DNA of 52,774 bases, from positions 1 to 52,774 of the forward strand of contig JBBAGC010000001.1 of assembly GCA_041655115.1 (NCBI GenBank), in the 5' to 3' direction. The stretch comes from Spirochaetota bacterium (GTDB taxonomy: Bacteria; Spirochaetota; UBA4802; UBA5550). Under the pieces are notes generated by a model, which was given only the letters and a program-made list of their open reading frames with translations, was not told the origin of the DNA and searched no databases. Positions within the stretch are counted from its first letter, which is position 1. Each line of letters opens with the position of its first letter. This document shows positions 20,146-45,904 of the stretch, piece by piece. A program made the translations under genes and the position numbers.

Positions 20146-20151
20146 ACGCTT

Positions 20152-21233: not shown

Positions 21234-22187
<954 letters not shown>

Positions 22188-24806: not shown

Positions 24807-24818
24807 AGTGGAGAGATT

Positions 24819-25980: not shown

Positions 25981-25984
25981 AATC

Positions 25985-27187: not shown

Positions 27188-28033
27188 TCACCCATCCGGA
27201 TACCGTTCAAGAAACTCCACCAGCGCCTCCCGCCAGTGAGGCAGAGGCCTATAGCCCTTAAGGCGCAAGGCCCGCTTCTCCAGCCGAGAGTTAGACGGCC
27301 GTTGCGCTGGACGTGGATACTCACTGGAGGAACAGGGTACCACGGACCGGGTACAATGTTTCAGGGTAAAAATCTCCGAGGCAACATCATACCAGGTCGC
27401 TTCGCCTTCGCAGGAAGCGTGAAAAATGCCGGATTCGTGACGTTCCAGAAACTGTTCGATCAGGCCCGCCAAAGCGTCTGTCGAGGTAGGGTTGCCGACC
27501 TGGTCGTTCACAACCCGTACCGGCGGCCCCTCTTCACGCCCCAGGCGCATCATGGTGTGAACAAAACTCGGGCCTCCCTTCCCATACAGCCAGGCCGTAC
27601 TCAAAATGGCCGCATCGGGACAGAACCGCAGGATAGCTTGTTCTCCCGCCAGCTTGCTTCGGCCGTAGGCCGTGCGCGGCGCAGGCTCGTCGTCTTCACG
27701 ATAGGGCCGGTCCAGTGTCCCGTCGAACACATAGTCAGTGGAGATTGCGATCAAACGGGCGCTGATCAGCGCCGCGGCCTGCGCAACATTTGCCGAACCC
27801 CCGCCGTTGATGCGCATCGCCTCGCCTGTTTTCGTTTCGCAGTCGTCAACGGCTGTCATGGCCGCCGCGTGAACAACACAGTCAGGACGTTGCGCCTCAA
27901 AGAAATCCTTCAGGGCATCTCCATCGGTTATATCTCCCATGGAACGGGTAAAACTGATCACCTCGTGATCACCAAGCACGCGGCAGAGCGTTCTGCCCAG
28001 CATGCCCCGGCCCCCGGTAACAAGTATCTTCAT
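27188..28033 (-). CDS. rfbD: dTDP-4-dehydrorhamnose reductase
   Basis: MKILVTGGRGMLGRTL..., a YGRSKLAGE motif, and an ATGA overlap with rfbC. Confidence 0.9.
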   Translation of the reverse strand: MKILVTGGRGMLGRTLCRVLGDHEVISFTRSMGDITDGDALKDFFEAQRPDCVVHAAAMTAVDDCETKTGEAMRINGGGSANVAQAAALISARLIAISTDYVFDGTLDRPYREDDEPAPRTAYGRSKLAGEQAILRFCPDAAILSTAWLYGKGGPSFVHTMMRLGREEGPPVRVVNDQVGNPTSTDALAGLIEQFLERHESGIFHASCEGEATWYDVASEIFTLKHCTRSVVPCSSSEYPRPAQRPSNSRLEKRALRLKGYRPLPHWREALVEFLERYPDG

Positions 28034-28605
28034 GGCTTCGATAATTCTTGATACACCGGAAGATGTTCCAAGGAAATCGATTGCAGAGTGGGAAGAAGGA
28101 GATCTTTATCGGACAAGAGAGGCAGCGTTCCTTTCAGAGACCAGTCAATGGCAAGATCCGGATCGTTCCAGGCAATACCACGCTCCGTCTCGGGCGTGTA
28201 AAAATCGGTACACTTGTAAACGAAATGGGCATCGTCACTGAGTACGAGAAAACCGTGGGCGCAGCCTGCGGGAATGTAGAGTTGGCCGGCCGTTTCACCG
28301 GTGAGCACGAAAGACGACCACGTACCAAATGCGGGTGACCCCCGCCGGATATCCGCCACCACGTCCAGAACTTCACCCCGCAGACACTGTACCAGCTTCC
28401 CCTGTGGCCGGGGCCACTGGTAATGGAGCCCCCGCAGAACGCCCCTGCGTGAGAAGGAAAGATTATCCTGCACCAGGGAACCCGGAATGCCCGCCTCCTC
28501 GTATCGATCCCGCTGAAAGGTTTCGAGGAAAAACCCTCGCCCATCCCGAAAAATGTCGGGCGTCACCAGGATCAACCCGGGAATATCAAACCGTTCGACC
28601 CTCAT
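28030..28605 (-). CDS. rfbC: dTDP-4-dehydrorhamnose 3,5-epimerase
   Basis: FRDGRGFFLETF, LRGLHYQ and DVVADIRRGSPAFG motifs. Confidence 0.9.
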   Translation of the reverse strand: MRVERFDIPGLILVTPDIFRDGRGFFLETFQRDRYEEAGIPGSLVQDNLSFSRRGVLRGLHYQWPRPQGKLVQCLRGEVLDVVADIRRGSPAFGTWSSFVLTGETAGQLYIPAGCAHGFLVLSDDAHFVYKCTDFYTPETERGIAWNDPDLAIDWSLKGTLPLLSDKDLLLPTLQSISLEHLPVYQELSKP

Positions 28606-29480
28606 CAGGCACGCTCCCCGTTTACCACTTCCATCAGATATGTGCCGAAATCACTGCCGCCCAGTTCCTGTGCCAAACGGATTACCTGCGTGTGGTCAAT
28701 GTATCCCATTCGCCAGGCGATTTCTTCCGGCACCGCTATTTTCAGGCCCTGGCGGGCCTCAATTGTATGTACGAAAGAGGCCGCTTCCAGGAGCGACTCG
28801 GGCGTTCCCGTATCAAGCCAGGCCGTACCCCGGCCCAGCAGTTTCACATTCAGCGATCCCTCCCGGAGGTAAAGGTTGTTGAGATCGGTTATCTCCAGTT
28901 CTCCCCTTGCGGACGGTTTCAGTGACCGTGCCATGTCAACCACCCGATCATCGTAAAAATAGAGTCCCACCACGGCATACTTGGACTTGGGCATCTTCGG
29001 TTTCTCCTCAATCGAGGTGACCGTGCCCGATTCATCGAAGGCAACCACGCCATACCGCTCGGGATCGCGCACCCAGTAGCCGAAGACGGTGGCACCTGCA
29101 TTTCCCTGCACCACCTCCTGCAACAGCTTCGCCAGCCCCTGGGCGTAAAAGATATTGTCGCCCAGAATAAGACAGGCGGCACCGCCGCCAAGAAAATCAG
29201 CCCCGATAAGGAAGGCCTGGGCCAGTCCGCCCGGATGGGGCTGCTCGGCATAGGACAGCGAAATCCCCCACTGCGAACCGTCGCCCAGAAGGTCGCGGTA
29301 GCGCGGCAGGTCACGGGGCGTACTGATCACAAGAATCTCCCGCAGCCCCGCCAGCATCAAGGTAGTAAGCGGATAATAGATCATCGGTTTGTCATAAACA
29401 GGCAGCAACTGCTTACTTGTCACCCGCGTCATGGGATAAAGCCGTGTGCCGCTGCCGCCGGCGAGAATAATACCTTTCAT
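28605..29480 (-). CDS. rfbA: Glucose-1-phosphate thymidylyltransferase
   Basis: [38 protein letters not shown] is diagnostic of RfbA. The ATG at 29480 is preceded by GAGGTG. Confidence 0.9.
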
Positions 29481-29582
29481 GGTCACCTCGAGTTATGGGT
29501 CACTGTTCGAGCAACGTCCTCACGATTTGGCGGGAGGAAGTTGACGCCGATGACAAGGCCGGTTTATTTGACATCCTTTTGG

Positions 29583-30287
29583 TCAGTCAGATGCTACCAA
29601 GAAGGGCATTAATTCCGTCTGTGCCCGCTCGTATTCTTCGGGTACGCCGATATCAATAAACTGCTCGGTCGTCACGAACAAATCAAAAGGGGAAATGGCC
29701 ATTTTCTTAGCAAAATAATCGATTTCTAGAGAAAAAGGTCTGTACAACGGGCAATGATCAAGTTGCCCCTTATTCAAGACATAACAGCCGGCATTAATTA
29801 ATCCGGGCCCATCTAAACCTTTTTCTTCGAAACCAATGATCTTGTTCTGATCGGTTACTAATCGTCCGTATCGATTCGTATCAGCCACATACCGGCCCAC
29901 GATAATCGGCCGTCGATGATCCTGCCAGTGCCTTTCAACTTTTTCAGTTTCCAGTGCAAGGAAAGTATCACCATTGAAAATATACACATGATCGTTGCTG
30001 CATTCTTCCATTGCCAGACGTACAGCACCCCCCGTTCCCAGTGGAGACTTTTCAACCACATAGGCAAGCTCAAGACCGGAAAAATGATCGCCGAAATGCG
30101 AGATAATTGTATCAGCCATGTATCCTACTGAGAGAACAACACGACCGAAGCCATGCCGAGCCAAGTAGAGCAATACTATTTCAAGAAATGGCCGACCTGC
30201 AATCGGCGCCATCGGTTTCGGCAGATCGGGCACTGCCTTTTTCAAGCGCGTCCCAAAACCACCAGCGAGAACAATTCCTTCGTACAT
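29583..30287 (-). CDS. hddC: Sugar-1-phosphate nucleotidylyltransferase, HddC-like (D-glycero-D-manno-heptose-1-P guanylyltransferase family)
   Basis: MYEGIVLAGGFGTRLKKAVPDLPKPMAPIAGRPFLE... The gene is paired with an HddA-like kinase gene. Substrate specificity was not established. Confidence 0.6.
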   Translation of the reverse strand: MYEGIVLAGGFGTRLKKAVPDLPKPMAPIAGRPFLEIVLLYLARHGFGRVVLSVGYMADTIISHFGDHFSGLELAYVVEKSPLGTGGAVRLAMEECSNDHVYIFNGDTFLALETEKVERHWQDHRRPIIVGRYVADTNRYGRLVTDQNKIIGFEEKGLDGPGLINAGCYVLNKGQLDHCPLYRPFSLEIDYFAKKMAISPFDLFVTTEQFIDIGVPEEYERAQTELMPFLVASD

Positions 30288-30348: not shown

Positions 30349-31392
30349 TTATTTTCGACGCATTATGATATCACCCCATGCCGTTGCACCGCGTTTGGTG
30401 AAGTAACAATTACTCACTTGTCCTTTGAAATGCTCCAGTGTTCTAACTACGTCCATGCGCCGCTCAGGAGGAACAAAGAACATCATGTATCCTCCCCCAC
30501 CGGCCCCGGACACTTTCCCCGCCAAGGCACCGGCATCAATGGCCGCATTGTATATTTCTTCTATGTGTTGGTTTGATACTGTTCCGGCAGACTTCTTTTT
30601 GCTCTCCCATCCTTGGCGCATTGATTCCACAATGCCTTCAAAATCTGCCTTCAGCAGACATTCTTTCATGGCCAGCGCTTCACGCTTCATGCCGTGCATT
30701 GCTTCCATTGCGATTGCAGATCCTGTTTTAATGTTGTCGCTCTGATCTGCAATGATTTTCGCCGATTCGCGTGACACGCCTGTATAGAACAATATCAGCG
30801 ATGCTTCTAATTCACATATAATCCAATCCTTGATTCTCAAGGGATTAATTATGGCTCTCTCATCATGATAGAACTCCATGAAATTAAAACCGCCAAAAGC
30901 CGCAGAATATTGGTCCTGCCGTCCCCCCTGGAGTCCACAGTCAACACGTTCTATCTTAAAGGCTAGTTGGGCTATTGTATAATCATCAAGGGGGAGGTTC
31001 AGCAGTTCGACAAAAGCACGGATCATTGCTACCACAAGCGTGGAAGAAGCTCCAAGTCCCGATCCGACCGGCGCATCGCAAAAGGTACTCAATTCAAGAG
31101 GTATCGGAACACCACCGTTGTAATGCTGAATCATTTCGTTGTAAACGGCTTTGTGGAGATTAAACTTGCCGTTCAGCGCAAGCGGTTCACCGATAGCTTT
31201 CACTTTCGTCGCTTGCTGATCGGTAGCCGAAAATTTCACATAAGGGTCATCAATCGTTTCGATTATTGCATAGGCATACCGGTCGATAGTCGCATTCAGA
31301 ACGTACCCTCCATGTAAATCGCAGTAAGGTGAAACATCTGTGCCACCACCGGCCAGACCGAGCCTTAACGGTGCACGGGATCGAATGATCAT
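30349..31392 (-). CDS. hddA: GHMP-family sugar kinase, HddA-like (heptose-7-P kinase / fucokinase-like)
   Basis: MIIRSRAPLRLGLAGGGTDVSPYCDLHGGYVLNATI and a PVGSGLGASS GHMP motif. The ATG at 31392 is preceded by GAAGGGGGG. The longer ORF (to 31443) would overlap the upstream gene. Confidence 0.6.
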   Translation of the reverse strand: MIIRSRAPLRLGLAGGGTDVSPYCDLHGGYVLNATIDRYAYAIIETIDDPYVKFSATDQQATKVKAIGEPLALNGKFNLHKAVYNEMIQHYNGGVPIPLELSTFCDAPVGSGLGASSTLVVAMIRAFVELLNLPLDDYTIAQLAFKIERVDCGLQGGRQDQYSAAFGGFNFMEFYHDERAIINPLRIKDWIICELEASLILFYTGVSRESAKIIADQSDNIKTGSAIAMEAMHGMKREALAMKECLLKADFEGIVESMRQGWESKKKSAGTVSNQHIEEIYNAAIDAGALAGKVSGAGGGGYMMFFVPPERRMDVVRTLEHFKGQVSNCYFTKRGATAWGDIIMRRK

Positions 31393-31402
31393 ACGCCCCC
31401 CT

Positions 31403-32140
31403 TCAGAGTTGTGAATCATTTGTAAATGGCGGCCTCGTCTCATTGGATTTTTTCAGGGACTTCATGTCATCTGCATACTGGTTCAAGTGCAGACGCATTT
31501 CCCGACCCGGCTGCATATTTGTTTTCGTCCTGTGTCCTCCTGCTGACGCCTCAGCCCGCAAACGTTTACGAATGATCAATTCAATGCCGCACTCTGCCAC
31601 CGGTGTCATGGTCTGATCGTAACGAGGCAAGTCAAACCGGTAGGTTGAAGAAAGTTGTTCGATTTTAATAACATCCGCCGCCTGCCCAAGCTTGCGAACC
31701 AGATCCACCAGATTAATTGAGCGAGGGCTCCATGATTTTTCCTTGAAAACAGTAAAGGTCCACTTGTGATCGCGATTGAATGTACTAGGAAATACACCCT
31801 GCTCATACAGGTCTTCGTCCGGCACGGTGATAACCAGGTATCCGCCTTCGCAGAGAACCCGGAACCAGTTACGCAAACCCTCTTCGGGGTCATTAAGGTG
31901 TTCCAGGCAATGACTACTATGGACAAAATCCAGCGATTCGTCGTCAATCCCCCCAAGGAATTGAGCGTCACCGTCTTCCAAGTCCCATGTCCTGACAGCT
32001 TTTATCAGGGGAAACAATTCGCCGTACAAAGACAACGGGTCTGGCTTACCGCCGATATCCAGACCGGAACCGACAAAATATCTGCGTACAAAATTTGAAT
32101 CTGCGAGCCGACGCTGAATTGCTTTACTACATTCTTTCAT
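31403..32140 (-). CDS. Class I SAM-dependent methyltransferase
   Basis: GLDIGG...DFVHSSHCLEHLNDPEEGLRNWFRVLCEGGYLVITVP is a Methyltransf_11-like pattern. Confidence 0.7.
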   Translation of the reverse strand: MKECSKAIQRRLADSNFVRRYFVGSGLDIGGKPDPLSLYGELFPLIKAVRTWDLEDGDAQFLGGIDDESLDFVHSSHCLEHLNDPEEGLRNWFRVLCEGGYLVITVPDEDLYEQGVFPSTFNRDHKWTFTVFKEKSWSPRSINLVDLVRKLGQAADVIKIEQLSSTYRFDLPRYDQTMTPVAECGIELIIRKRLRAEASAGGHRTKTNMQPGREMRLHLNQYADDMKSLKKSNETRPPFTNDSQL

Positions 32141-32146: not shown

Positions 32147-32935
32147 TCACCTGCCCTTAAAGGCTCTGAACACAAAGTGCGGCCATATCTGTTCAGAATT
32201 TAAGCCATCGCGGCGAATCAACAAGTTTTCGACTACTTCGGTAGCACCAATACAACTCGATACAGTGGCGTCGTCAAACACGACATACCCTCCGTCAACC
32301 ATAAAAGGTTTCACGCCCTCGTATGAAAATTTAACTGCTGGGGCAATATCGCAATCGATATGGGCCAGACTGACTCTTTGCGCCTGATTCATCACAGCTT
32401 CATTGGTATCTTCAAAGAAACCTTTTACCAGTATCAAATTATCCAGTTTCAGCTCATCAATCCGTGATTGTAATTGATTGAAATCGGCATCTGAGAAATC
32501 CCCTGCATTGTGCGCATCCACAGTTTTATCAGTCGGCGGCATGCCGACAAAACTATCCAGGGCAAAAACCTTCGTCCCCGGATACAGTTTTTTAACGACA
32601 TAGGCCATAAAAATCGCGCTGCCGCCGCGATATGCTCCATATTCCACGATATGCCCGGATGGGATCTTCTCTAAAAAAAACCGCAGAATAAGATAAATAT
32701 TCATTCTGTTCTCTTCGCTCATAATCGTTCTGTCCCTGGCGACATCGAGCGCTTCTTGATACAAGGGATCCGCCAGAATTTTTTCCTTTAATCCGCCGAA
32801 CTGAAGGCCCCAGCCACGCTGATAACCTTCATACACATTTCGTCCGTTTCTTATGCCATCAACTAATCCCTGCAACTCAGGAAGATAAGATACGTGCGGG
32901 ACAGACTGCCGGGCAAATATCTTTTTAAAAATCAT
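32147..32935 (-). CDS. TylF/MycF/NovP-family sugar O-methyltransferase
   Basis: HIVEYGAYRGGSAIFMA...ALDSFVGMP...LAHIDCD...GGYVVFDD is typical of macrocin-O-methyltransferase-like enzymes. Confidence 0.75.
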   Translation of the reverse strand: MIFKKIFARQSVPHVSYLPELQGLVDGIRNGRNVYEGYQRGWGLQFGGLKEKILADPLYQEALDVARDRTIMSEENRMNIYLILRFFLEKIPSGHIVEYGAYRGGSAIFMAYVVKKLYPGTKVFALDSFVGMPPTDKTVDAHNAGDFSDADFNQLQSRIDELKLDNLILVKGFFEDTNEAVMNQAQRVSLAHIDCDIAPAVKFSYEGVKPFMVDGGYVVFDDATVSSCIGATEVVENLLIRRDGLNSEQIWPHFVFRAFKGR

Positions 32936-32939: not shown

Positions 32940-35900
32940 TTAGCCCTTTACGGCACGAATGTAGTGCTGCCCGGGTCCGAGGTGTCCATATACCTCTGAC
33001 CAGTAAAAATGCAATGCGGCTTCGCTGAAGCCCGCTCTTTTTATATCATCGACGAATTGCCAACCAAAATCAGTAAATACAAGCGATCCATCATCGGATA
33101 CCGGGTTGCCATGAAAAACAGGCGGGAGAATATAATTCACATTGCCATCAATAATTTTGGCACGACACACGCTATCTTCCCTGTCCAGATGAAAGGGAAC
33201 AGTCATCAACAGTTCGCCCCCCGGTTTCAGTACCCGGCACATCTCCCGCAAGGCTTTAATCGGGCTTGTAACATGTTCAAGAACATCGTTGCTGATAATA
33301 ATATCAAATCTTCCACTTTCAAAGCTTAGTTTTTCCGCATCTTCGTGTCTTATTCCCTTTACAATTTTCCCCGGCGTCAGTTCCGCACCCAAATACTCAC
33401 TGCCGGTATAGAGTGCCCGCGGCAAGCAATCGTTCAGACATTTATAAACAGGCGTAACCTGTTCCATAAGATACACTGCCGGCATCCTGTCGCGAAAAGA
33501 TTGAATAGTTCGACACGCTTGAAACACAATCATTCTTTGTCGGTTATTCAAGCCACAACTCGAACAAACCAGACGCTCGCGCCAATTGGGTATCCACACA
33601 CCTCGATCTTCAACAGCACCGCATTGCTGATCCACCAAATACTCTACTTCACGATCACAAACTCTGCAGTAACCCAGCAGATGGTAGGCTGCTACGCCAC
33701 TATTCTCCATGGCGATGCGCCGCTCCGTCGCGCAGCAATCCTGAAATTCCTGAGAAATCGACCAGTCATCATATTCAGTTTTGGTTGAGGCAGTTAAAAT
33801 AACTTCCAGTAAATCTCCGGTCTGATCCATGCATATTACCCCATCGGATCTATTCGGTGACACCTCATTAAGGGGCTTGCGTACTATCTTGCTGCTATCG
33901 ACTCCGATATCTTTCAGCAACGCTTCAACCGTATTGATACCGGCTTCCAGCGAGTAATTGCGTCGCACAAAATCCAGGCCGCCCCGTGAGCAGGAATTCC
34001 ACAGTTCCGCATCTTGATACAGGCGCACAACTGTATCGGCGAAATCCGAAGGTTCATCCGCTACTATTACGCCATCGCCTTTCATCAAGTCCATTCCCTC
34101 AGCGCCGATCGTAGTTGCAACGCAGGGCAATCCGTAGCTCAGGCTGGTGCCGATTTTCCCCTTAATCCCGGAGCCGTAGCGCATGGGTGCCACACTCATA
34201 CGGCAATAATCAAATATCTCTCTCAGATCCTCGACGTAACCAACCACTTTTATGTTGTCATCTGCCAGAGCCAGCACTTCGGCGGGTGGGCGACTGCCTA
34301 CAATGTAAAAAGCGATTTCCGGCAATTGCTGTCGAATCAATGGAAATATCTCGTTTACAAACCAACACACACCATCAATGTTCGGCCGATGTTGAAAACC
34401 CCCAACAAACACTATATCGCGACGTTCTTCGCCGGGTGTCTTTGTTCCGGGCGCAGCTATGGCCCATGAAAAAAGATAAATATTGCTTTTTCGCATTTTC
34501 CCTGTCAGTTCAGCGTCCAGCAGTTCCTTCTCAGTTGAACTATGGACGATGGTAGCATCCGCAGCCTGAATAATGCGCATTTCTCGTTTTCGTGTCTTTT
34601 CCGCCGCTCGACGCAAATCATCAGAATCAACCAGTTCTGCCTCGCGTAGTTCTCTCAGATGGTGCAGATCAGATGTATGAAATACTAATTTCGCATTGGG
34701 GCAGTATTTACGAATTGCCGCCAAATTACGTTCCGCCGACAATAGTCGAAAAACGACAACAACATCATATTGTTCCCCGTTTTGAGACAAATACCGATCG
34801 ATCGACGTGACATGCGGTGCATACAGACACTCTATCCCGATCCGTTGGAGATCTTCTGTATAAGGTTCCATGAAAAGAAAATTGTCTTCCGGGACAAAGG
34901 TTACCTTGAAGTCCAATCCCTGCAAGATGCGCATGAGATTCAGTGCCGTGATTGAACCGGCATCCTGGTCAGGGGTTGGTGTGCAATGATCCAGCACCAA
35001 GGCGCGGCCACTTACTCTGCGGTCTTTTTCCTGTTCAGGGTTCACTCCCGGAACACCATGTCCCACAATCATTTCTTTCCAACGAGCAAAAAGCTTATTT
35101 GCATTCTCCACCTGGTACGCCTTAACGCCCGAAGAAACCTCAGTGCCGGATGTGATTCCTTCGAAGTGGATCACCTCGGACAGGGGTTGATACAGCACCC
35201 GATAGCCGGCTTGACGGACACGGAAAGCAAGATCGGAGTCCTCTCCATAGGCAGGCAAATAATGCTCGTCAAAACCGCCCAGACGGTCGAAAAGCTCTTT
35301 AAGAATCATCAAAGACGCGCCGGAGCAGTAATCCACGTCGCGAAGGTAGTTGAACTCAGGTCTGCTTGGGTCCTGCAACCGCCCATAATTCCAGCCCGAC
35401 CCATCCTGCCAGATAATGCCTCCAGCTTCCTGCAGGCGGCCGTCGGGATAGACCAGCTTCGAGCCGACCAGCCCGGCCTGGGGAACGCAGTTAAAAGTAT
35501 TTACTAATTCATCCAGCCAGCCGCTCCTGACGACTGTATCGTTGTTTAATATGACAACAAGTTTGCCGCGTGCCCTCTTTACGCCGCGATTACAGGATTT
35601 GATAAAACCGAGATTCCTTCTGTTGCGAACAATGTGTAACCCCTTTATGTTCTTTAACATATCCAGTGTGTTGTCGGGTGATCGATCATCAACGACAATT
35701 ACTTCAAAGCTGTAATGAGATCGATGCGATCTGAGTGACCGTAGACATTGATAAGTGTACTCGACCTTTCCGAAAACCGGGATTACGATAGAAACTGTTG
35801 GTTTATCGGGGCACAAGAGGTCGAAAGGTTCACCTGGAGAGGTAGGTTCACCATATTTGTATTGTGATTGGGTTGCACCGGGTAGTTGAGTTTTCCATAA

Positions 35901-36953
35901 ACTATATGAAAGGGTATGCGAAAAAATGCCGGGGAAAAATCTGTACAAAAAACTTTTTAGTCGATTCTTCGTTAACGTGGAAACCGGAAGGTGGCTATAA
36001 ATTGCTCGGAACAAAACGACAATAATTTCTTTGGACTGATTCACAATGTAACGCCACATGCCTGCGATGCGGCGTATCGGGGCGGTCATTTTCCATGAAC
36101 GGGAACGGTATATGTCGTTAATGGTCGCATTGAGCCGATCAATCTCTTGCCTTGCCGTTTGACGTTCGCTTTCCAGAAAATCATTCAGCCTATGGATTTC
36201 TTCAGATGTGCTCTTACGTTCATAATACAGAACTCTTAGGAGCCCTTCAGCCGCGACCGAATTCCCCAGAATTCTGTAGAGAGTGAGGATTTTATCGGTT
36301 GTTTCTTCATCGCTACCGAATAACTCGGGAAGAATTTCAGCAGCATGTTTCCCGTAAGCGAGCACGCCCAACCCGTTGGAATGCTGAAACGCAAAAGAGG
36401 GATATTCGATCTTCAACTCATCCCATAATTTCCAGACGCCAAAATCGCCCTCATGTACAGCAATATCGTGCAGCAGAATGACTCCGCGATCACTCATCTT
36501 GAGTTTCCAGTTGTCAAAGTCATGCCGGACGGCCTCATAGGTATGCAACCCGTCTATATGAAGCAGATCAATGGAACCATCGGGAAACCGGGGAACCGCA
36601 TCGTCAAACGTAGATTGAATCAGGAGTGAGAAATGCCCATACTGCTGATCATGTTTCTCACGCAATTCCTCAAAAACTTCTTCTCCATAGTAGCCGGAAT
36701 GTTCATCGCCTGCCCACGTATCAACGGCAAAACACCGTGTCGGCAATTTGAAACGGGAAACAGCTTCGCAGAAAACGAAGTACGAATCCCCTTTGTGTAC
36801 TCCCAATTCGACCAGATTTCGAGGCATTAATTGCCGGACCAGCATAAATGCAAAGGGTATATGCCCATGCCATGAAATAATCTCACCGGTTGTGCGAGGC
36901 GACCAGTCATCAGGCTTAAATATAGATAATTCCAGAAAGCGGTTTGATTTCAT
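32940..36953 (-). CDS. 1337-aa multidomain glycan assembly protein: N-terminal methyltransferase, coiled coil, GT2, GT4-like GT, then zinc-ribbon plus a C-terminal methyltransferase
   Basis: Domains by residue number:
- aa 40-170: [10 protein letters not shown]...[13 protein letters not shown]...VILLHD (methyltransferase)
- aa about 235-290: heptad-rich, charged segment
- aa 386-600: [13 protein letters not shown]...[10 protein letters not shown]...[11 protein letters not shown] (GT2)
- aa 850-960: VGGF...[30 protein letters not shown] (Glycos_transf_1)
- aa 1096-1135: CxxC...CxxC
- aa 1215-1255: [13 protein letters not shown]...[12 protein letters not shown] (methyltransferase). Confidence 0.75.
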
Positions 36954-37558
36954 CTCATACCCACTGTCATTGCACGGTGCCTCAAGCTTCGTACCGCCCT
37001 CATTTTAATGTTCTGCCAGAACCCTTTGTCCGGTTTTCGGCAAACCAACATGGAATCATGCCACCAGTCGCTCCCGTCCTCGTAGCCCTCATCCGACCAC
37101 TGTGTGGAAACTTCAATCACTTCAAGGTGCGCGAATTTCGCCAGTGAGCGCATACCGTCAGGGTAAAATCGCCAGCAATCCAAAGGATATCTGTGTTCCG
37201 GACCACTGGATGGCGCCAGGATGCAACATATGCCGGCCGGTTTTAGCACCCGTGCAATTTCCAGCATTGTTATCCAGAAATACTCGATATGCTCGAACGC
37301 CTGGCCGGAAATGACCACGTCTGCTGAGTTGTCTGTAATTTCTCGCCAAACATATGGTGTGTGTAATACTACATCCACATTATCGCCTTGTGCCATGTCA
37401 ATACCGATATACATCCACTTCGGCTTATGAAACAAAGAACGATATGAACCATTTACATCCTGGCTTCCCAGATCGTAAATGCGCAGAGAGACATCTTCTT
37501 TTCCCGAAAGATACCTCCGGCAAAAATCTTCCATCTTCTTAAATGAACTGGCGTGCAT
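36950..37558 (-). CDS. Class I SAM-dependent methyltransferase
   Basis: [11 protein letters not shown]...[15 protein letters not shown]...[12 protein letters not shown]. An ATGA overlap links it to the 1337-aa gene. Confidence 0.7.
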
Positions 37559-37572: not shown

Positions 37573-38355
37573 TCAGTCTGGCAAGCGATAGATCCAGGCA
37601 TCAGGCCAATAAGTCAATTCTTCTATGACGTGCTCATTCCCGCACAGTGCGGGCGGACGTTTGATAACAAATTCAGGGTGAGCGGCTACAAACTCACGAG
37701 CAGCCGTAGCCGGATTATCATCGATCCATTCAGCCTTCCCCCATGGCGTGTCTGCAAGGTGTTGCATTACACCATCAGCGGCAACTATATATGATCCCGG
37801 TGTAACCATGTCTGCATATGCATTAAGCTCCTCCATCACATGAGATTTTGAATGATCGCTGTCAAGGAAAACAAAAACCTTGCTGTCTGATTTGGTATGT
37901 TCCCGTACCTTTTCCACCACCGCAGTCGACGTGGAATCTCCTTGTATCAAAGTGATCAGATCTCCAAAAGGACTTTGCTCTATTCTCGCCCGCAAATCCG
38001 CCGGTACGACAATATCAACCGAAACGACACGTCCTTTACCAAGCAGACGACATAGGGTTGCAAAAAAAATTGAACTTCCTCCTTGACTAACTCCGGTTTC
38101 GACGATTACATCCGGCCTAAGGGCAACAATTATCTCCTGAAGTCGCAGCAGATCATCCGGAAATTGCCAGACAGGAAAGCCAAACCAGGAAAAGGTTTGC
38201 CAGTGCAACTGGTTCCATTCCTGTTTAATCCAGATACTGGAAAGCAATCTGAATCCTTCTTGCGAGTAAAGCGGGATATCTACTTCGTTGCCACCATTTC
38301 TGGTTTGAATGATGAGTTCATCGGTATCAATTATGATTTTCACAGTATTCCTCAA
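37573..38355 (-). CDS. CmcI / cephalosporin-hydroxylase-family SAM-dependent methyltransferase, copy 2
   Basis: FSWFGFPVWQFPDDLLRLQEIIVALRPDVIVETGVSQGGS parallels the protein encoded at 14572-15378. The start is a TTG at 38355, or possibly a GTG four codons downstream. Confidence 0.7.
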   Translation of the reverse strand: MRNTVKIIIDTDELIIQTRNGGNEVDIPLYSQEGFRLLSSIWIKQEWNQLHWQTFSWFGFPVWQFPDDLLRLQEIIVALRPDVIVETGVSQGGSSIFFATLCRLLGKGRVVSVDIVVPADLRARIEQSPFGDLITLIQGDSTSTAVVEKVREHTKSDSKVFVFLDSDHSKSHVMEELNAYADMVTPGSYIVAADGVMQHLADTPWGKAEWIDDNPATAAREFVAAHPEFVIKRPPALCGNEHVIEELTYWPDAWIYRLPD

Positions 38356-38504
38356 TTGGCTTACTTGTTCGATTCCTCTGAAGTATTCGTTGCTCTTTGG
38401 ATTTTACGAATGCATTGTTCGGGCGACATACCATCTACATAGCACATGTGTTGGTTTGATATGTCCTGACAGAATGATCCTGAGTTTGATGGAAAATTTG
38501 TTGG

Positions 38505-40484
38505 TTAATGACAACTACCACTATTTTCCTCCATAGCACATGATCCCGTTTTCAGAAAGTATTCATTATGTTTTTCCTTTAACATAAGGCCCATGTACTG
38601 TGCAGCCGGAACGCTGAAGTGGTGGCGGTCATAGGTGAACAGTTTTCCCCCAAACATCAATGGACAGTCACTGACAGAATCTCCACGACAGAGTAGCTCC
38701 CTCTTGCTTATGAAGATAACTTGAAGTGTTGAAGCAAGTGTTTTGAGCTCATCATCAAAAGCAAAACTATGCCAATCCATATTTGTTTCATAATGGGCAT
38801 TCATTTCCATATTTCCATCCCGAATAACCATTTCAGGAACATCCTCTTTAAAAAACATATAATTGCCAAGCACAATAATCGGGATATTTGTCTGATTTCT
38901 TATGCACATAATGGTGCGCTTCAAGTTTTCCGGTCTATACCAACTGAAAACGGTATTAATAATTATGAGATCCGCATGGGATAGCTGACCTTGATACAAT
39001 AATCTTTCATTTCGTTTGATACAGCCCTCACGATCTGGATGCTTCGCAGTGAGCAGTTTGTAATCTTCCCGGACTAGGGGAGGACATCCCGCTAATCCAT
39101 GTACTTCGTAATGGTACTCTGGATAGTGTGCGGCTAACGCATTCAAGGCATCAGGCGCGTGACTATCACCGATTATAATCACAGTAAAACCTTTCTTCGG
39201 TGTACCAACTACAATACTTTGGTTTACGGAGCTCATTTCATGAACGAGCTTAAAGCGGGCCTTTTTTTCTGCTTCCGCTTCTTTCGAAAACCTTGTCAAT
39301 TCATCAGGGAACCTCCATGCCCAGCCGTTTCCGGCACTTATCATCATCGACACAGTAAACAAACATACCATACCGCCTGCTGATAATTTCATAAAATCAG
39401 CGAACGATCTGGTATTCTTTTTTTCTGATTGACTGCTTATCCTAAAGGGATTTTCGACAAACCTATACATGGCAACTGCTGTTATTACAGAAACCACAAT
39501 AATGGATATTCTTCCAACCACTCCCGGATCGCATCCGTGCCACTGTCGAAAGAATACAAAGAGGGGCCAGTGGACAAGATATAAAGAATATGAGATACGT
39601 CCCAAACCAACAAACAAGCGGTTAGACAGCAAGGGTTGTGCAATTTTACTTTCACTACCAAACCGAATCAGCAGAACAGCCCCTAGACAGGGAACCAACG
39701 CCATTAGCCCAGGGAATCGTGTTGCGTCTGAATAGGTGAAAACAGCATAAAAAAACAGTATGAAACCGGACAAAGCAAGAGTATTGCGAATCCATCCAGC
39801 AGCTGTTAGTCGGAATGGGACCAATGCACATACGGCACCCACCGTAAATTCCCCGATACGGAATGGCATTAAATAGAAAGCACCTGATGGATCTTTAACG
39901 ATCGCAATTTCTGCCACAATAAAAGACAGAACCCCAACTGCCGTCAGTACAACAACACTATTTCTGGTGTTTCTTAACAATCGGACGAGAAGAGCGATCA
40001 GGACCGGCCAGATGAGATAATACTGAAATTCTACTGCAAGTGCCCATGTATGCAATAAAGGTTTTTGAATCGCTGATGCTTCAAAATATCCGGACTGGCT
40101 CCAAAAATAAAAGTTGGACACTGAAAAAATCGATGCAATTGCACTTTCGCTTGTATGTTTCAGGTCAGCGGGGGAAGAAAAAATAATGCCAGCTGTTAAA
40201 GTGAGCGCAATGGTGAAGAAAAGAGCCGGGACAATGCGGCTGATCCTCCTGCCATAAAACGTCTGAAACGAAAAAACCTCCTTCTGTATCTCTGGAAAGA
40301 CATTACGCGTTATCAGGTAGCCGCTGATAACAAAAAAAACATCCACGCCGACAAAGCCTCCGGCAAAGCACGGCAATAACTTAAAGTGAAATGCCAAAAC
40401 TGCCATAACAGCGAAGGCTCGTAAACCTTCGATGTGCGGTAAAAACAAAGAGTCTGCTTTTATGTTTGACTGAGAGCTACGCAA
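38505..40484 (-). CDS. Acyltransferase-3 (OafA/OatA-like) membrane O-acyltransferase with a C-terminal SGNH-like domain
   Basis: IEGLRAFAVMAVLAFHF at the N terminus, about 10 predicted hydrophobic segments, then a soluble C-terminal region of about 270 aa. The ORF appears to start at a TTG. Confidence 0.75.
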   Translation of the reverse strand: MRSSQSNIKADSLFLPHIEGLRAFAVMAVLAFHFKLLPCFAGGFVGVDVFFVISGYLITRNVFPEIQKEVFSFQTFYGRRISRIVPALFFTIALTLTAGIIFSSPADLKHTSESAIASIFSVSNFYFWSQSGYFEASAIQKPLLHTWALAVEFQYYLIWPVLIALLVRLLRNTRNSVVVLTAVGVLSFIVAEIAIVKDPSGAFYLMPFRIGEFTVGAVCALVPFRLTAAGWIRNTLALSGFILFFYAVFTYSDATRFPGLMALVPCLGAVLLIRFGSESKIAQPLLSNRLFVGLGRISYSLYLVHWPLFVFFRQWHGCDPGVVGRISIIVVSVITAVAMYRFVENPFRISSQSEKKNTRSFADFMKLSAGGMVCLFTVSMMISAGNGWAWRFPDELTRFSKEAEAEKKARFKLVHEMSSVNQSIVVGTPKKGFTVIIIGDSHAPDALNALAAHYPEYHYEVHGLAGCPPLVREDYKLLTAKHPDREGCIKRNERLLYQGQLSHADLIIINTVFSWYRPENLKRTIMCIRNQTNIPIIVLGNYMFFKEDVPEMVIRDGNMEMNAHYETNMDWHSFAFDDELKTLASTLQVIFISKRELLCRGDSVSDCPLMFGGKLFTYDRHHFSVPAAQYMGLMLKEKHNEYFLKTGSCAMEENSGSCH

Positions 40485-40512
40485 AACTTTCGCCTTTTTT
40501 AACTGGTGCTTA

Positions 40513-41210
40513 GAGACCTTTGCACAACTCCCCCATTATCCCTTTCCCTCACGTTCACATAGGCCCTGAAAAACTGTGTTATTCAAAGCTATCATATTAA
40601 TATTACTTGACATTCAAACGTTTTTCTGCCATAGTTCGTCCATAAAAATCACCCTCGGGAGGATTTCATGGGCTTCAAAAACATGAAAGTCAATTTCACC
40701 TTCGCCGACATGGCACTGTCAACCTCAATGGAGAAGAACCGGGCCATCAAACGCATGGAAGAGATCAACGCCATCGCCGACGGCATCATGAGAAGGGCCA
40801 CAGGAAGAACTAGCCTCACGGCCTTCGAAGTAGCGAGGCATAAGGCCATCGCGAAGATCAGATATATCGTCGAACAGTACTTCGGGCTCACCCATCTCCA
40901 TAACAACGCTTCCAGGGCACGGTTTACCACCATCGCCAAAAATGCCACCGACGCCCTCTTCAGGCAATTCGCCTTCAACCTTCAAAGGGGAACCAGGGTC
41001 CTGGCAACATGAAACAAGGGAGTAGTGCGTCCGCAGAGGGAAAAACAGAGAAACGGAGACTCCCAATGAGTCATTCGGGATGTCAAAGGGTCGTGTCATA
41101 GCGGTAAAAACGCTTTCGGTCCGGAACTCCGACCGGAAGTAACCTCCGGAATCCTGAAAAAATGGCCCCGAAAGGGGAAAGCAGGGAATAGGCGATTATT
41201 CAAACGTCTC
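40513..41210 (+). mobile_element. Degenerate IS (IS4/IS5-superfamily type) with an internally deleted transposase
   Basis: GAGACCTTTGCACAACTCCC at 40513 matches the reverse complement of 41191-41210 (GAGACGTTTGAATAATCGCC) at 14 of 20 positions by hand alignment. The 3'-terminal region of about 140 bp recurs at 52248-52391. Confidence 0.6.
40668..41012 (+). pseudogene. Transposase remnant (N- and C-terminal segments of a DDE_Tnp_1-type IS5-like transposase, catalytic core missing)
   Basis: Only 114 aa. FADMALSTSMEKNRAIKRMEEINAI resembles the N-terminal region. RYIVEQYFGLTHLHNNASRARFTTIAKNATDALFRQFAFNLQRG resembles the conserved C-terminal region of IS5-family transposases. Confidence 0.6.
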
Positions 41211-41230
41211 AATACGTTCGCTGTTGTAGC

Positions 41231-42586
41231 TCAATCGTTCCAATTGCAAATATTCTTTACCACATCCTTTTGGAGACAATCGCGGTATTCTGCAAAACTA
41301 AAATATGATATAAGATGGTTATTGTTAATGTTCGGAATTGAATTTTGATGAGGACATACTGAACAAGCCGTATTCAAAAAATTAACGTCTGACGAATCAA
41401 AATATTTTCGAGAGATTACGTAATGCATGCTGTTAAAGACGTTAATGTCTGATAAAATATTCCCGAATAACGCGGACGGATCTTTCAAGGGTTCAAAACA
41501 ACAAGGAAATATGCGGCCAGTGGCGTCCATGGCCATGTCTTTATACAACCACTGACAAGTTTTCATATTTGGCCTTGATCCTTCAAGATAGTCGTCGTCC
41601 ACACGTGAGACCCATGATTTCTCCCAATGATCCTCAATGATCGGATGAAGGTCTATTACAGCGTTTTCAAGAGACTGGCGGCCAGCGCCAATTTGTAAAT
41701 TGAATACATTATAACGAGGTAGTAGGTTTAATGGTTTAGTAATTGTTGGATCGTACATTGAAACATCATATGGTTCGGCAAAATCGATCCGGTCCACACC
41801 TCTCTCTTGGGCCAACTTTTTCGCTTGATTTATTTCAGATATCGTATGATCAAAAAGAAGGTACTGCCATACAATAAAAGGCGTTTTTGATTTCAAATCT
41901 TTGCGGGCTTTAACAAGACGGGTAATGTTGTCGAGGACAAGATCGAAGTTGCCATTGACACGGTACTTACCATAAGTTTCGGCAGTAGCCCCATCGATAG
42001 ATAAAATCAAATAGTCAAGCCCTGAGGCAACCAGCGCCTCTGCATCAAAAGAAAGCGAAAGATTTGTAGAAATAGATGTACGCATCAAAAAACGGCGCGA
42101 TTCCTGAATGAATTGTGGTGTTTTTTTGTTTAACAAAGGCTCCCCCCAGTTAAAATATTGGGTGTTGATTGCATAAGGCCCGAATTCATAGAGGAGTCGG
42201 TCAAGAGTGTCCTTATTCAGGTTACCAGGAACCCAGTCAATTTTGCTTTTATCTTGAGCTGTTTTTCGATGAATGCATCCAGGGCACGCCAATTGGCAGG
42301 AATTACATGGATCGACAATAAGACCAAACGGACGTGAAATCAGTCGGCTATGTCGTCGCAGGTATTGGTATTTACCCACTGCAACGTTGGATATCTTGAG
42401 CAATAAAACTTTGGCAAATCTTTCCGAGCCATAGACTTGCTTTAGATAACTCAACGATTCTCTATTGAAGTTGTCGACTTTTTTAAGAAATATATCAAAT
42501 TCAATTTCAGACTCGCTGAGCGCGGACAGTTCATTTAACAAATTCGATATCGGCAGAAAGTTAGTATTCATTGCCACTTTTTCCAT
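41231..42586 (-). CDS. Radical SAM enzyme with a SPASM/twitch-like C-terminal cysteine motif; function unknown
   Basis: CQLACPGC (CX3CX2C), NWGEPLL and LILSIDGATAETYGKYR form the radical-SAM core. The C-terminal segments CQWLYKDMAMDATGRIFPCC and ACSVCP are SPASM/twitch-like. The ATG at 42586 is preferred over the TTG at 42592. The gene is A+T-rich. Confidence 0.8.
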   Translation of the reverse strand: MEKVAMNTNFLPISNLLNELSALSESEIEFDIFLKKVDNFNRESLSYLKQVYGSERFAKVLLLKISNVAVGKYQYLRRHSRLISRPFGLIVDPCNSCQLACPGCIHRKTAQDKSKIDWVPGNLNKDTLDRLLYEFGPYAINTQYFNWGEPLLNKKTPQFIQESRRFLMRTSISTNLSLSFDAEALVASGLDYLILSIDGATAETYGKYRVNGNFDLVLDNITRLVKARKDLKSKTPFIVWQYLLFDHTISEINQAKKLAQERGVDRIDFAEPYDVSMYDPTITKPLNLLPRYNVFNLQIGAGRQSLENAVIDLHPIIEDHWEKSWVSRVDDDYLEGSRPNMKTCQWLYKDMAMDATGRIFPCCFEPLKDPSALFGNILSDINVFNSMHYVISRKYFDSSDVNFLNTACSVCPHQNSIPNINNNHLISYFSFAEYRDCLQKDVVKNICNWND

Positions 42587-42607
42587 CACCAACTGTAGGG
42601 TGAGTCC

Positions 42608-43639: not shown

Positions 43640-43727
43640 ATTCACCTCTCTGAAACAACTTGCTCCTTTCTACTATTCGCTTCACGAGTAAAGATACCAT
43701 TTCTTCAGAAGAAGTTTTCTCGTTGGA

Positions 43728-44714: not shown

Positions 44715-44753
44715 ATTCACCTCTCTGAAATTTGACGCTCGATGGGGGACTTG

Positions 44754-45092: not shown

Positions 45093-45127
45093 ATTGTTTT
45101 GTTCTGTTAAACACAAATCCTCTCCCG

Positions 45128-45883: not shown

Positions 45884-45904
45884 TATACGACTCTCAATAA
45901 ATAT

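Follow-up and report, generated by a model that had tools for sequence, protein, structure and literature searches.

The K. pneumoniae O7 protein ORF6 (1414 aa), which has been tested experimentally, combines a methyltransferase at its N terminus with a coiled coil and two rhamnosyl-glycosyltransferase (GT) modules (Kelly et al., J Biol Chem 2024, PMC11231755); orthologues, some with the GT modules and some lacking them, have been noted in alpha- and gammaproteobacteria and in cyanobacteria (PMC11231755). WbbB of Raoultella terrigena and K. pneumoniae O12 is a single protein with an N-terminal terminator, a coiled-coil ruler and two C-terminal polymerising GTs (PMC11231755). For WbdD/WbdA of E. 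coli O9a and K. pneumoniae O3, a methyl-containing cap ends polymerisation and the length of the coil sets the modal chain length (PMC6286764, PMC10629545); the coil of WbdD is about 200 Å long, and insertions and deletions shift the modal length (PMC6286764). The S-layer glycan of Geobacillus stearothermophilus NRS 2004/3a is encoded by a wzm/wzt locus with rml genes (PMC2943079, PMC9415975), in which WsaE combines an N-terminal 2-O-methyltransferase with two rhamnosyltransferase domains (PMC2943079).

Here we analyse a 1337-aa protein encoded in a 52,774-nucleotide stretch of DNA from a Spirochaetota bacterium (hereafter the window). The protein is most likely a single-chain builder of a cell-surface sugar polymer, with a methyl-capping enzyme held on a short helical arm. 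An earlier sequence-only reading of the window had proposed it as the best candidate for polymerase and chain-length controller of an ABC-transporter-dependent glycan, an interpretation that as a whole is partly supported by our results.

Domain architecture of the 1337-aa protein

The protein is the product of a single ORF in the ORF list (32940..36953, minus strand), which begins with ATG and whose start overlaps, by 4 nt, the end of the methyltransferase gene upstream. From N to C terminus, HMM searches and AlphaFold2 place a Methyltransf_24 O-methyltransferase, a helix at aa 216-282, a basic amphipathic linker, a GT2 module of GT-A fold, a GT4 module of GT-B fold, and finally a Cys4 zinc ribbon with a methyltransferase-like domain. 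The fusion and the domain order put forward in the sequence-only reading are thereby borne out. The Pfam matches all lie far over their gathering thresholds (PF13578, 88.5 bits against 26.3; PF00535, 91.2 against 23.3; PF13692, 91.3 against 27; PF08241, 55.5 against 21.2), and AlphaFold2, run on the two halves of the protein, returned mean pLDDT values of 91.6 and 88.4. Among 8000 candidates scored, 4571 homologues were retrieved at E<=1e-10, many of them full length.

The first 215 residues (36309..36953, minus strand) form a class I SAM O-methyltransferase of the Methyltransf_24 family (CmcI/TylF-like), with the PF13578 match at aa 48-164 (E 6e-25) and a Rossmann-type domain to about aa 200 whose secondary structure is predicted by AlphaFold2 with pLDDT >90. 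Residues of SAM- and metal-binding type are conserved, the invariant positions of the alignment including E49, L50, G51, G55, S57, D78, D134, H137, H162 and D163. A PDB profile search with this domain produced weak matches only, the best being 6g7d (8e-5), which we take to be a methylmannose-polysaccharide methyltransferase, with CmcI at 0.43 and WbdD absent from the matches. Among homologues the enzyme before the coil is exchangeable: it may be Methyltransf_24, Methyltransf_11 (P0042 and the protein of locus L030, 1e-22), a GT2 (locus L012, 2e-36) or an unassigned module, while the coil, an S-x-S-W motif and the GT2-GT4 core are kept. The enzyme is variable in type, yet it is always found at the far end of the coil. 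We propose the Methyltransf_24 domain as the candidate chain-capping enzyme.

Pfam, AlphaFold2 and Foldseek place two GT modules after the helix, on what would be its membrane-proximal side. The inverting GT2 module, aa 386-640 (35034..35798, minus strand), matches Glycos_transf_2 (PF00535) at aa 388-555 (E 9e-26), with Glyco_tranf_2_3 reaching aa 599, and its GT-A domain is modelled at aa 386-630. Foldseek retrieved ppGalNAc-T-type GT-A structures for it (ppGalNAc-T2, E 2.5e-16), and invariant or nearly invariant residues include D422, D423, N470, D472, E571, D572 and D574. The GT4-type module, aa 641-1015 (33909..35033, minus strand), a retaining enzyme by type, matches Glyco_trans_1_4 (PF13692) at aa 845-981 (E 9e-26) and TIGR03087 (1.5e-37), is modelled as a GT-B domain of two Rossmann halves at about aa 649-1015, and conserves the motifs R-Y-G-A-G-I-K-G-K and A-E-G-M. 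Its Foldseek matches, with E about 1e-13 and a target TM of about 0.7, are GT4 enzymes of GT-B fold such as MshA, BshA, PimA and ManT (7qsg), the methylmannose-polysaccharide mannosyltransferase of M. hassiacum. Judged by sequence, the GT2-GT4 pair most likely functions as a polymerase.

The GT4 module is followed by a flexible linker at aa 1016-1050 (33804..33908, minus strand), with pLDDT <50 at aa 1032-1045 (model residues 432-445), and then by the C-terminal domain at aa 1051-1337 (32943..33803, minus strand). The sequence-only reading had described the latter as a zinc ribbon plus methyltransferase. The Cys4 ribbon stands, with C1096, C1099, C1130 and C1133 (33555-33668) invariant or nearly so in homologues, as does the Rossmann-type fold, which AlphaFold2 places after beta hairpins with pLDDT >90. 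What is missing is a canonical SAM-binding loop: no glycine-rich SAM loop is recognisable in the domain, the loop being V-Y-L-M-E-Q-V-T-P, and Methyltransf_11 (PF08241; aa 1201-1249, E 9e-15) covers only profile positions 46-94, the second half of the profile. A PDB profile search nevertheless retrieved methyltransferases including 8ys9 (1.5e-8) and the glucose O-methyltransferase 6uv6 (1.6e-7). We also found this module as a stand-alone protein of 285-310 aa and in other fusions, in 735 clusters at E<=1e-30.

A short putative helical spacer and a basic linker

Residues 216-282 (36108..36308, minus strand) are predicted by AlphaFold2 to form a single long alpha-helix with pLDDT of about 90 or more, a putative short coiled-coil spacer. 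Its 67 residues comprise a conserved base (aa 216-246) and a variable, charged part of about 36 residues (aa 247-282). The charged, heptad-like segment proposed earlier at aa 235-290 falls inside this predicted helix, and the coordinates given for it, 36084-36251, are arithmetically right, but its heptad score does not rise above that of shuffled sequences. Using a crude heptad score compared with the maxima of shuffled sequences, we found that the protein peaks only at aa 250-287, at 1.60, which is not above the shuffled maxima of 1.53 +/- 0.07. The 50-aa linker at aa 233-282 (2% Pro+Gly, 44% charged or polar) has a hydrophobic period of 3.6 residues (z = 5.8) rather than 3.5 (z = 2.9).

The case for a coiled coil comes instead from the homologues, the heptad signal of this protein being weak evidence when taken alone. 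Across homologues, the helical segment that separates the S-x-S-W motif from the N-terminal methyltransferase ranges from 39 to about 330 aa and is hypervariable even though the flanking domains are 50-80% identical. These segments are low in Pro and Gly and rich in charge, they grow by 39-residue tandem repeats, and in many of them the heptad periodicity is strong (z = 22.8, 15.7, 15.4, 12.8 and 12.1). For instance, P0004 and P0006, at 97.4% identity, are distinguished by a 44+3 aa insertion within the helical segment, and the segment of P0009 consists of seven 39-aa tandem repeats with 81% self-identity. The helix at aa 216-282 probably pairs with its counterparts in one or two further subunits and may serve as a ruler. 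Its length is close to the family minimum, and any ruler effect here would be small.

The helix leads into aa 283-385 (35799..36107, minus strand), which holds the motif S-x-S-W-x-x-T-x-P-x-R, a conserved element of the alignment consensus, together with basic amphipathic helices (aa 285-355) and a disordered stretch. AlphaFold2 places helices at 285-289, 291-321, 326-339 and 348-355. With 13 K+R against 1 D+E, aa 283-360 have a net charge of +12 and are 15% aromatic, and the hydrophobic moment of aa 289-318 (0.54-0.57) exceeds the 95th percentile of the whole protein (0.48). These properties are consistent with membrane binding and suggest a putative membrane-proximal anchor or hinge before the polymerase.

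Gene cluster, exporter and sugar supply

Pfam searches confirmed wzm, wzt and rmlACD in the window. The cluster is a series of co-directional, tightly packed genes that includes wzm (ABC-2 permease, PF01061; 45905..46717, minus strand) and wzt (PF00005; 45128..45883, minus strand). Wzt is 251 aa long and consists of the nucleotide-binding domain only: its matches to Wzt and TagH structures have E values of 1e-45 to 1e-48, it aligns with residues 31-237 of A. aeolicus Wzt (404 aa), and in Pfam it yielded PF00005 and not the Wzt_C cap-binding module (PF14524). A 120-aa ORF downstream of wzt had no matches in our searches. Short Wzt proteins of 234, 238 and 244 aa also occur in close relatives, PF14524 is likewise absent from Wzt of the close loci L005, L006 and L087, and one relative, locus L088, has another type of exporter. 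PF14524 is present on Wzt of more distant loci, among them those with another module before the coil (L007, 1e-35; L030, 8e-30; L012, 2.5e-19; L068, 2e-41), and in L091, L092 and L093 Methyltransf_24-coil-GT2-GT4 proteins adjoin a Wzt_C-bearing Wzt, the L093 protein having the full five-part architecture.

The 1337-aa gene is flanked by four stand-alone methyltransferase genes, all on the minus strand and assigned by Pfam: a Methyltransf_11 gene directly upstream (36950-37558), a further upstream gene of the rhamnosyl O-methyltransferase/CmcI family (37573-38355; also NF045824), a TylF-family gene directly downstream (32147-32935) and a Methyltransf_11/23 gene after it (31403-32140). The upstream gene order is the same in L004-L006 and L088, and the downstream pair is kept in L004-L006, L087 and L088; in total the cluster encodes at least six methyltransferase or methyltransferase-like domains. 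Other minus-strand genes identified with Pfam encode an AT3-SGNH acyltransferase (38505-40484), a radical SAM protein (41231-42592), two sulfotransferases kept in L005, L006, L087 and L088 (42608-43645 and 43728-44720), a PF00953 (WecA/WbpL-type) phosphosugar transferase that is the candidate initiation enzyme (23730-24854) and a GT2 that is a candidate adaptor enzyme (25087-25998); a further GT2 is found at 46770-47705. A separate Wzx-type cluster lies directly downstream within the window, and one homologous locus abuts lptF/lptG.

The sequence-only reading had named dTDP-Rha as a donor. The window does contain rmlD, rmlC and rmlA of the dTDP-L-rhamnose pathway (27188..29486, minus strand; RmlD_sub_bind 5e-92, dTDP_sugar_isom 2e-67, NTP_transferase 2e-74), but rml genes were not seen beside the close homologues in L004-L006. 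It also contains an hddA-like heptose-7-phosphate kinase gene (30349-31443, minus strand; NF049969, 1e-119) and an hddC-like heptose-1-phosphate guanylyltransferase gene (29583-30287, minus strand; NF049965, 1e-50), both matches being full length yet under the equivalog cut-offs. This pair, for the supply of GDP-D-glycero-D-manno-heptose, stands beside homologues in L004-L006, L087, L088, L091 and L093. Because the sugar-nucleotide genes conserved in relatives are hddA/hddC, dTDP-Rha is not the best-supported donor; D-glycero-D-manno-heptose is a likely building block, with rhamnose possibly used too.

Proposed mechanism and alternatives

We propose, as a moderately probable reading, that the protein is a multi-enzyme polymerase for an ABC-transporter-dependent glycan, with an N-terminal methyltransferase terminator set on a helical spacer in front of a GT2-GT4 polymerase. 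The inverting GT2 and the retaining GT4 would take turns adding to a polyprenol-linked chain on the cytoplasmic side of the inner membrane, where the basic amphipathic segment (aa 283-355) would hold the polymerase. The helix would keep the Methyltransf_24 domain and the polymerase as much as about 10 nm apart, and a growing end that reached this domain would be O-methylated, blocking further extension. The C-terminal module, the four neighbouring methyltransferases, the acyltransferase and the two sulfotransferases could decorate the chain, which Wzm/Wzt would then export. One leg of the canonical mechanism is missing because Wzt is a nucleotide-binding domain only; therefore, capping can bring growth to an end, but export is probably not gated by it. 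The earlier description of the protein as the best candidate for polymerase and length controller accordingly holds in that it is the only multi-GT protein of the wzm/wzt cluster, and is weakened by a coil near the family minimum and by the form of Wzt. The proposed likeness to systems in which a coiled coil separates a terminator from polymerising GTs fits the architecture, the variability of the coil among homologues, the swappable terminator and the Wzt_C-bearing relatives.

Counting against a terminal cap is the number of methyltransferase domains in the cluster, as methylation may be internal and not terminal. A rather unlikely alternative is a polymerase with built-in modifiers and no ruler, in which the helix only dimerises or scaffolds, both methyltransferase domains of the protein and the four stand-alone enzymes methylate every repeat unit to give a polymethylated glycan like mycobacterial methylmannose polysaccharide, and length follows from the balance of polymerase and exporter, as it does in systems that make no terminal cap. 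The minimal helix with its non-significant heptad signal would agree with this, as would the resemblance of GT4 to 7qsg, the best PDB match of the N-terminal domain to 6g7d, and the Wzt proteins here and in the closest relatives, since transporters that lack a cap-binding module have been linked to length control by stoichiometry (PMC6286764). However, a plain dimerisation element would not readily account for fast, repeat-driven changes of helix length between near-identical proteins, the variable enzyme, of whatever type, is invariably at the coil's far end, and homologues of the same architecture go with Wzt_C-bearing exporters. The exchangeable module before the coil and the Wzt_C-bearing Wzt of distant loci, as sequence observations, support the reading of terminator, ruler and polymerase.

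A reading in which termination falls to the C-terminal zinc-ribbon/methyltransferase-like domain, leaving the N-terminal methyltransferase another job such as internal methylation, is very improbable. The C-terminal module is autonomous and widespread, and some members begin after the S-x-S-W motif and have GT2-GT4 and the C-terminal domain only (e.g., P0094, 1037 aa, on a 1.6-Mb contig); nevertheless, a short flexible linker and no spacer connects it to GT4, its SAM loop is non-canonical, and many coil-bearing members without it still have cap-reading exporters. A further question, which bears on the fate of the glycan and not on how the enzyme works, is whether the product is an LPS O-antigen or a capsule-like glycan, an exopolysaccharide or a protein-transferred glycan. 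We regard the latter group as unlikely, given that a WecA/WbpL-type initiating enzyme with wzm/wzt is typical of O-antigen loci and that a homologous locus adjoins lptF/lptG. Pointing the other way, we identified no ligase gene in the ABC cluster of the window, the Wzx-type cluster is close by, and WsaE acts in S-layer protein glycosylation. The related locus L088 has a gene of the Wzy_C family, which includes O-antigen ligases and also O-oligosaccharyltransferases.

Comparison with known systems

The sequence-only reading had presented a methyltransferase terminator fused in cis as a departure from known systems. Precedents exist, as methyltransferase-coiled coil-GT-GT fusions are already characterised in K. 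pneumoniae O7 ORF6 (PMC11231755) and WsaE (PMC2943079). Like the protein described here, O7 ORF6 is one polypeptide of a wzm/wzt locus with an N-terminal methyltransferase terminator, a central coil and two C-terminal GTs. It differs in having a kinase and an Ig-like domain, in adding methyl-phosphate, in a methyltransferase that is CgnL-like and not Methyltransf_24, in GT modules that are both GT2 rather than GT2 and GT4, and in lacking the C-terminal zinc-ribbon/methyltransferase-like domain. As in the protein described here, a single polypeptide of WsaE places an N-terminal O-methyltransferase ahead of two GT domains; like ORF6, WsaE has no C-terminal methyltransferase-like domain.

WbbB also fuses a terminator, a coil and two polymerising GT modules in one chain, but its terminator is a GT99 beta-Kdo transferase, its GTs belong to GT102 and GT103, and its exporter has a carbohydrate-binding module (CBM). 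Searches of PDB chain sequences with the protein and its domains, by single sequence and by profile, returned no WbbB or WbdD chain. The WbdD/WbdA system resembles our proposal in that a coil parts the terminator from a membrane-proximal polymerase. In contrast, it splits terminator and polymerase between two proteins, WbdD joins a kinase and a methyltransferase to a trimeric coil of about 200 Å (against at most about 100 Å for the helix here), WbdA has two GT4 modules, and its Wzt has a CBM. HMM searches found no kinase domain in the 1337-aa protein, and we ruled out membership of the WbdD family on this ground, on the fused polymerase and on the PDB result.

Cap-less systems of the K. pneumoniae O2a type share with this locus a Wzt that is a nucleotide-binding domain only. 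They have no terminator and no coiled-coil protein, whereas this locus encodes a coil-bearing protein with an N-terminal methyltransferase as candidate capping enzyme, which sets it outside that class. In the Klebsiella paradigm, Wzt has a cap-reading CBM, and the Wzt described here has none. The probable design of the 1337-aa protein is known from Klebsiella and Geobacillus, but the exporter of this locus is without the usual cap-reading domain.

Domain architecture and predicted structure

The gene at 32940-36953 on the minus strand is an uninterrupted frame of 1337 codons with an ATG start. Its start codon shares a 4-base overlap with the stop of the upstream gene (36950-37558), and 4 bases lie between its own stop and the start of the following gene, thus placing the ORF in a tightly packed co-directional operon. 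Pfam searches assigned Methyltransf_24 to aa 48-164 (E 6e-25), Glycos_transf_2 to aa 388-555 (E 9e-26), Glyco_trans_1_4 to aa 845-981 (E 9e-26), and Methyltransf_11 to aa 1201-1249 (E 9e-15). Structures were predicted with AlphaFold2 in two overlapping parts, aa 1-640 from an alignment of 82 sequences (mean pLDDT 91.6) and aa 601-1337 from one of 69 (mean pLDDT 88.4). From the N-terminus, the models contain a Rossmann-type domain to approximately aa 200, a single high-confidence helix at aa 216-282, shorter helices at aa 285-355, a disordered stretch up to aa 385, a GT-A domain at aa 386-630, a GT-B domain at approximately aa 649-1015, a low-confidence linker at aa 1032-1045, and a beta-hairpin with a Rossmann-type domain at aa 1051-1337. 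The ORF and the domain order proposed in the sequence-only reading, i.e., methyltransferase, heptad-like segment, GT2, GT4, and zinc ribbon with methyltransferase, are thus borne out by both the HMM assignments and the models. The gene is better annotated as a multifunctional glycan polymerase/methyltransferase than as just a "glycosyltransferase".

Foldseek comparisons confirmed the GT-A fold through a match to ppGalNAc-T2 (E 2.5e-16) and the GT4-type GT-B fold through matches to MshA, BshA, the mycobacterial methylmannose-polysaccharide mannosyltransferase, and PimA (E about 1e-13). No ruler proteins were among the Foldseek matches of either half-model, which were generic GT-A and GT-B enzymes only, with methyltransferase-domain matches being swamped in both searches.

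The helix and its length in homologues

The segment following the N-terminal methyltransferase had been proposed to be a coiled-coil ruler. The 50 residues between the methyltransferase and the S-R-S-W motif are 2% Pro+Gly and 44% charged or polar, and their hydrophobicity repeats every 3.6 residues (z = 5.8, against z = 2.9 for a period of exactly 3.5). A simple home-made heptad score applied to this protein alone gave its sole peak at aa 250-287, which did not rise above the maxima of shuffled sequences, and the score was dropped as proof of a coiled coil. The protein by itself provides modest evidence; what decides the case is comparison with homologues whose flanking domains are 50-80% identical to it. 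In these, the distance from the end of the methyltransferase to the S-x-S-W motif ranges from 39 to approximately 330 residues, the 50 seen here being near the minimum. Homologues P0004 and P0006 share 97.4% identity across 1420 aligned positions, and a 44+3-residue insertion separates their linkers; in homologue P0009, the linker consists of a 39-residue unit repeated seven times in tandem (81% self-identity). Very strong 3.5-residue periodicity is seen in many longer linkers (z up to 22.8). On long linkers made of repeats, such as that of P0009, the global Fourier test fails and so understates the coiled-coil signal. A putative coiled coil is supported by a confidently predicted helix and by variable, periodic linkers in homologues, but not by the protein's own heptad score. 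The part of the helix at aa 216-246 is conserved in sequence, leaving only about 36 residues as the variable part in this protein. The family provides a natural series of coil lengths, from 39 to approximately 330 residues, with some of the differences found between 97%-identical proteins.

Directly after the helix, the motif S-x-S-W-x-x-T-x-P-x-R is kept across the family. The 70 residues that follow it hold 13 Lys+Arg and one acidic residue, are 15% aromatic, and have hydrophobic moments above the 95th percentile for the protein. From this composition we infer that the segment may be a membrane-interface element that holds the helix at the membrane by its polymerase end, which would make it the counterpart of WbdD's membrane-proximal end (PMC11231755).

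Distribution of the family and its exchangeable modules

Among 8000 candidates scored, 4571 matched at E<=1e-10, and the GT2-GT4 core with its S-x-S-W linker is widespread. A scan of species-representative genomes found 307 stretches encoding a relative across many phyla; none of these came from a close relative of the source organism, the best match having 51% identity over the GT2 part. The nearest named homologue, from a Gammaproteobacteria MAG, is 63% identical. The module in front of the coil is Methyltransf_24 in the protein described here, Methyltransf_11 in P0042 (Pseudomonas taiwanensis) and at locus L030 (1e-22), and a GT2 at locus L012 (2e-36), with weak or no Pfam assignment at loci L008, L068, and L056. 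For the N-terminal modules at L008 and L068, a guess of a sulfotransferase and a kinase was abandoned, Pfam having found nothing, and both are left unassigned. Some family members are without the whole N-terminal part and some without the C-terminal domain.

The P. taiwanensis homologue (locus L087; GCA_013393345.1, contig QJRF01000042.1) is 1520 aa long, with a different type of N-terminal methyltransferase and a much longer coil. Its locus also contains wzm, a short wzt, a sulfotransferase, methyltransferases, hddA, a SIS gene, and hddC. P. taiwanensis is a cultured carrier of the same cassette and a possible experimental model.

In the C-terminal domain, the proposed zinc-ribbon cysteines (1096, 1099, 1130, and 1133) are invariant or nearly so in homologues. 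The Methyltransf_11 match covers only the second half of the Pfam profile, and in the family alignment a conserved V-Y-L-M-E-Q-V-T-P occupies the expected site of the glycine-rich SAM loop. In profile searches, the domain's matches to methyltransferases of sugars and small molecules are confined to the central motifs. The module is autonomous: at E<=1e-30 it was found in 735 representative clusters, many of them stand-alone proteins of 285-310 residues, along with fusions at other positions, and in the AlphaFold2 model it is joined to the GT4 by a short flexible linker. We regard the domain as a putative modifying enzyme that would act near the polymerase.

An exporter without the cap-reading module

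The Wzt encoded in the window is 251 aa long, its alignment to solved Wzt and TagH proteins is confined to their nucleotide-binding part, and Pfam detected no Wzt_C (PF14524), the cap-binding carbohydrate-binding module (CBM), in it. Wzt is likewise short in the closest relatives, at 234 aa (L005), 238 aa (L006), and 244 aa (the P. taiwanensis locus), and one relative has a fused permease-ATPase exporter in place of Wzm/Wzt. The sequence-only reading was broadly right as to the class and mechanism of the system but missed this absence. Two candidates for the missing function were considered. A 120-aa ORF downstream of wzt (44754-45116) was rejected as a detached cap-binding module, with no matches in Pfam or among PDB proteins. 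The C-terminal zinc-ribbon/methyltransferase-like domain was rejected as a stand-in for the missing Wzt module because the protein at locus L093 carries that domain alongside a Wzt with Wzt_C.

Wzt_C is present in the Wzt of more distant loci (L007, L030, L012, and L068; E 1e-35 to 2.5e-19). At L091, L092, and L093, a Methyltransf_24-coil-GT2-GT4 protein adjoins a 445-455-aa Wzt with Wzt_C; this arrangement is the canonical one, known from WbdD, WbbB, and the Klebsiella O4/O7 systems. It supports a reading in which the N-terminal methyltransferase would be the capping enzyme and the helix the spacer. A rough survey of 80 genome loci found approximately 30 with a Wzt at >=34% identity, of which 20 are extended at the C-terminus by 144 residues or more and 10 are not extended. 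At locus L090 (homologue P0085), the adjoining wzt seems to be split into ABC_tran fragments of 130 and 275 aa, with a Zeta_toxin-domain gene among the genes inserted.

The current model of ABC-transporter-dependent O-antigens ties together a capping enzyme, a coiled-coil ruler, and a cap-reading exporter module. In the window locus and its closest relatives the putative counterparts of the first two are in one polypeptide and the third is absent, whereas distant homologues of the same architecture have all three. The two groups offer a natural experiment on whether a ruler can fix chain length when export is not proof-read.

Sugar supply and the likely glycan

The rfbACD genes pointed out in the sequence-only reading are present, but rhamnose as the principal sugar is probably wrong. 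Beside close homologues, the conserved pair is a GHMP kinase with a nucleotidyltransferase, to which a SIS isomerase is often added and, in some cases, a HAD phosphatase. The kinase and nucleotidyltransferase of the window match HddA (1e-119) and HddC (1e-50) over their full lengths, though below the NCBI equivalog cut-offs, and the pair is predicted to belong to the GDP-D-glycero-D-manno-heptose pathway. Conservation around the gene extends to four stand-alone methyltransferases, an AT3-SGNH acyltransferase, and sulfotransferases. At the upstream end of the cluster (49021-52124) are cysN-, cysD-, and cysC-like genes with GTP_EFTU, PAPS_reduct, and APS_kinase domains; their products would provide the two sulfotransferases at 42608-44720 with PAPS, and a sulfated glycan is therefore predicted. 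Given the hdd, methyltransferase, sulfotransferase, and cys genes, the product is probably a heptose-containing glycan that is both methylated and sulfated and may also include rhamnose, and we infer that its linkages may alternate between those formed by an inverting enzyme and those formed by a retaining one. The literature was searched for methylated heptose O-polysaccharides, and no matching structure came up.

A radical SAM protein (453 aa, 41231-42592) with weak matches to SPASM-type maturases is encoded between the sulfotransferases and the acyltransferase, and a radical SAM gene is also present in related locus L088. The otherwise packed operon has two unusually long non-coding gaps, 44721-45127 (about 400 bp) and 40485-41230 (about 750 bp), and the ORFs within them (44754-45116 and 40725-41099) have no Pfam matches. 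Directly downstream, a second, Wzx-type polysaccharide cluster (2434-14561) contains a Polysacc_synt flippase (13035-14561), FnlA/B/C-like genes (5891-9164) that we read as an L-FucNAc-type pathway, a second PF00953 initiating transferase (2434-3546), one GT2, and two GT4s. Between the clusters, 14572-23222 holds further sugar-nucleotide genes, including gmd (525 bits, above cut-off) and a reductase-like gene, along with a nucleotidyltransferase, a 4,6-dehydratase, a 3,5-epimerase-like gene, a TylC3-type sugar C-methyltransferase (Methyltransf_13/14), a further Methyltransf_23, and a second RMNT_CmcI methyltransferase. The window contains at least nine methyltransferase or methyltransferase-like domains. 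GC content is 41-45% in parts of both glycan clusters (8001-12000 and 38001-46000) and 50-57% elsewhere in the window, which would fit horizontally acquired serotype-specific genes.

Comparison with known systems

Taken jointly, these observations allow a tentative reading, which we consider possible though rather unlikely. A clade of terminator-coil-polymerase enzymes, including that of the window and those of several uncultured Gammaproteobacteria and P. taiwanensis, would work with exporters without a cap-reading module; coil length, varying by whole 39-residue repeats between near-identical strains, would tune glycan length; and the glycan would be a heavily O-methylated, sulfated, heptose-based surface polymer of a chemically undescribed kind. 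If this were true, capping and length control would be uncoupled from export gating, or another component would sense the cap. The value of the system lies mainly in this CBM-less clade and the natural coil-length series.

The sequence-only reading overstates novelty, since methyltransferase terminators fused in cis are already known. The closest characterised analogue is K. pneumoniae O7 ORF6, in which an N-terminal methyltransferase, accompanied by a kinase, precedes a coiled coil and two rhamnosyl modules of the GT2 type; both polymerisation and termination by this protein have been demonstrated (PMC11231755). In WsaE, a capping 2-O-methyltransferase is joined to a pair of rhamnosyltransferase domains (PMC2943079), WbbB follows the same logic as O7 ORF6 with a Kdo-transferase providing the cap, and WbdD/WbdA divides that logic between two proteins. 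Single-sequence and profile searches found no similarity to WbdD or WbbB among PDB chains. The window system differs from these known systems in its domain families (Methyltransf_24 and GT2 plus GT4), its very short helix, its exporter without a cap-reading domain, and its extra C-terminal module.
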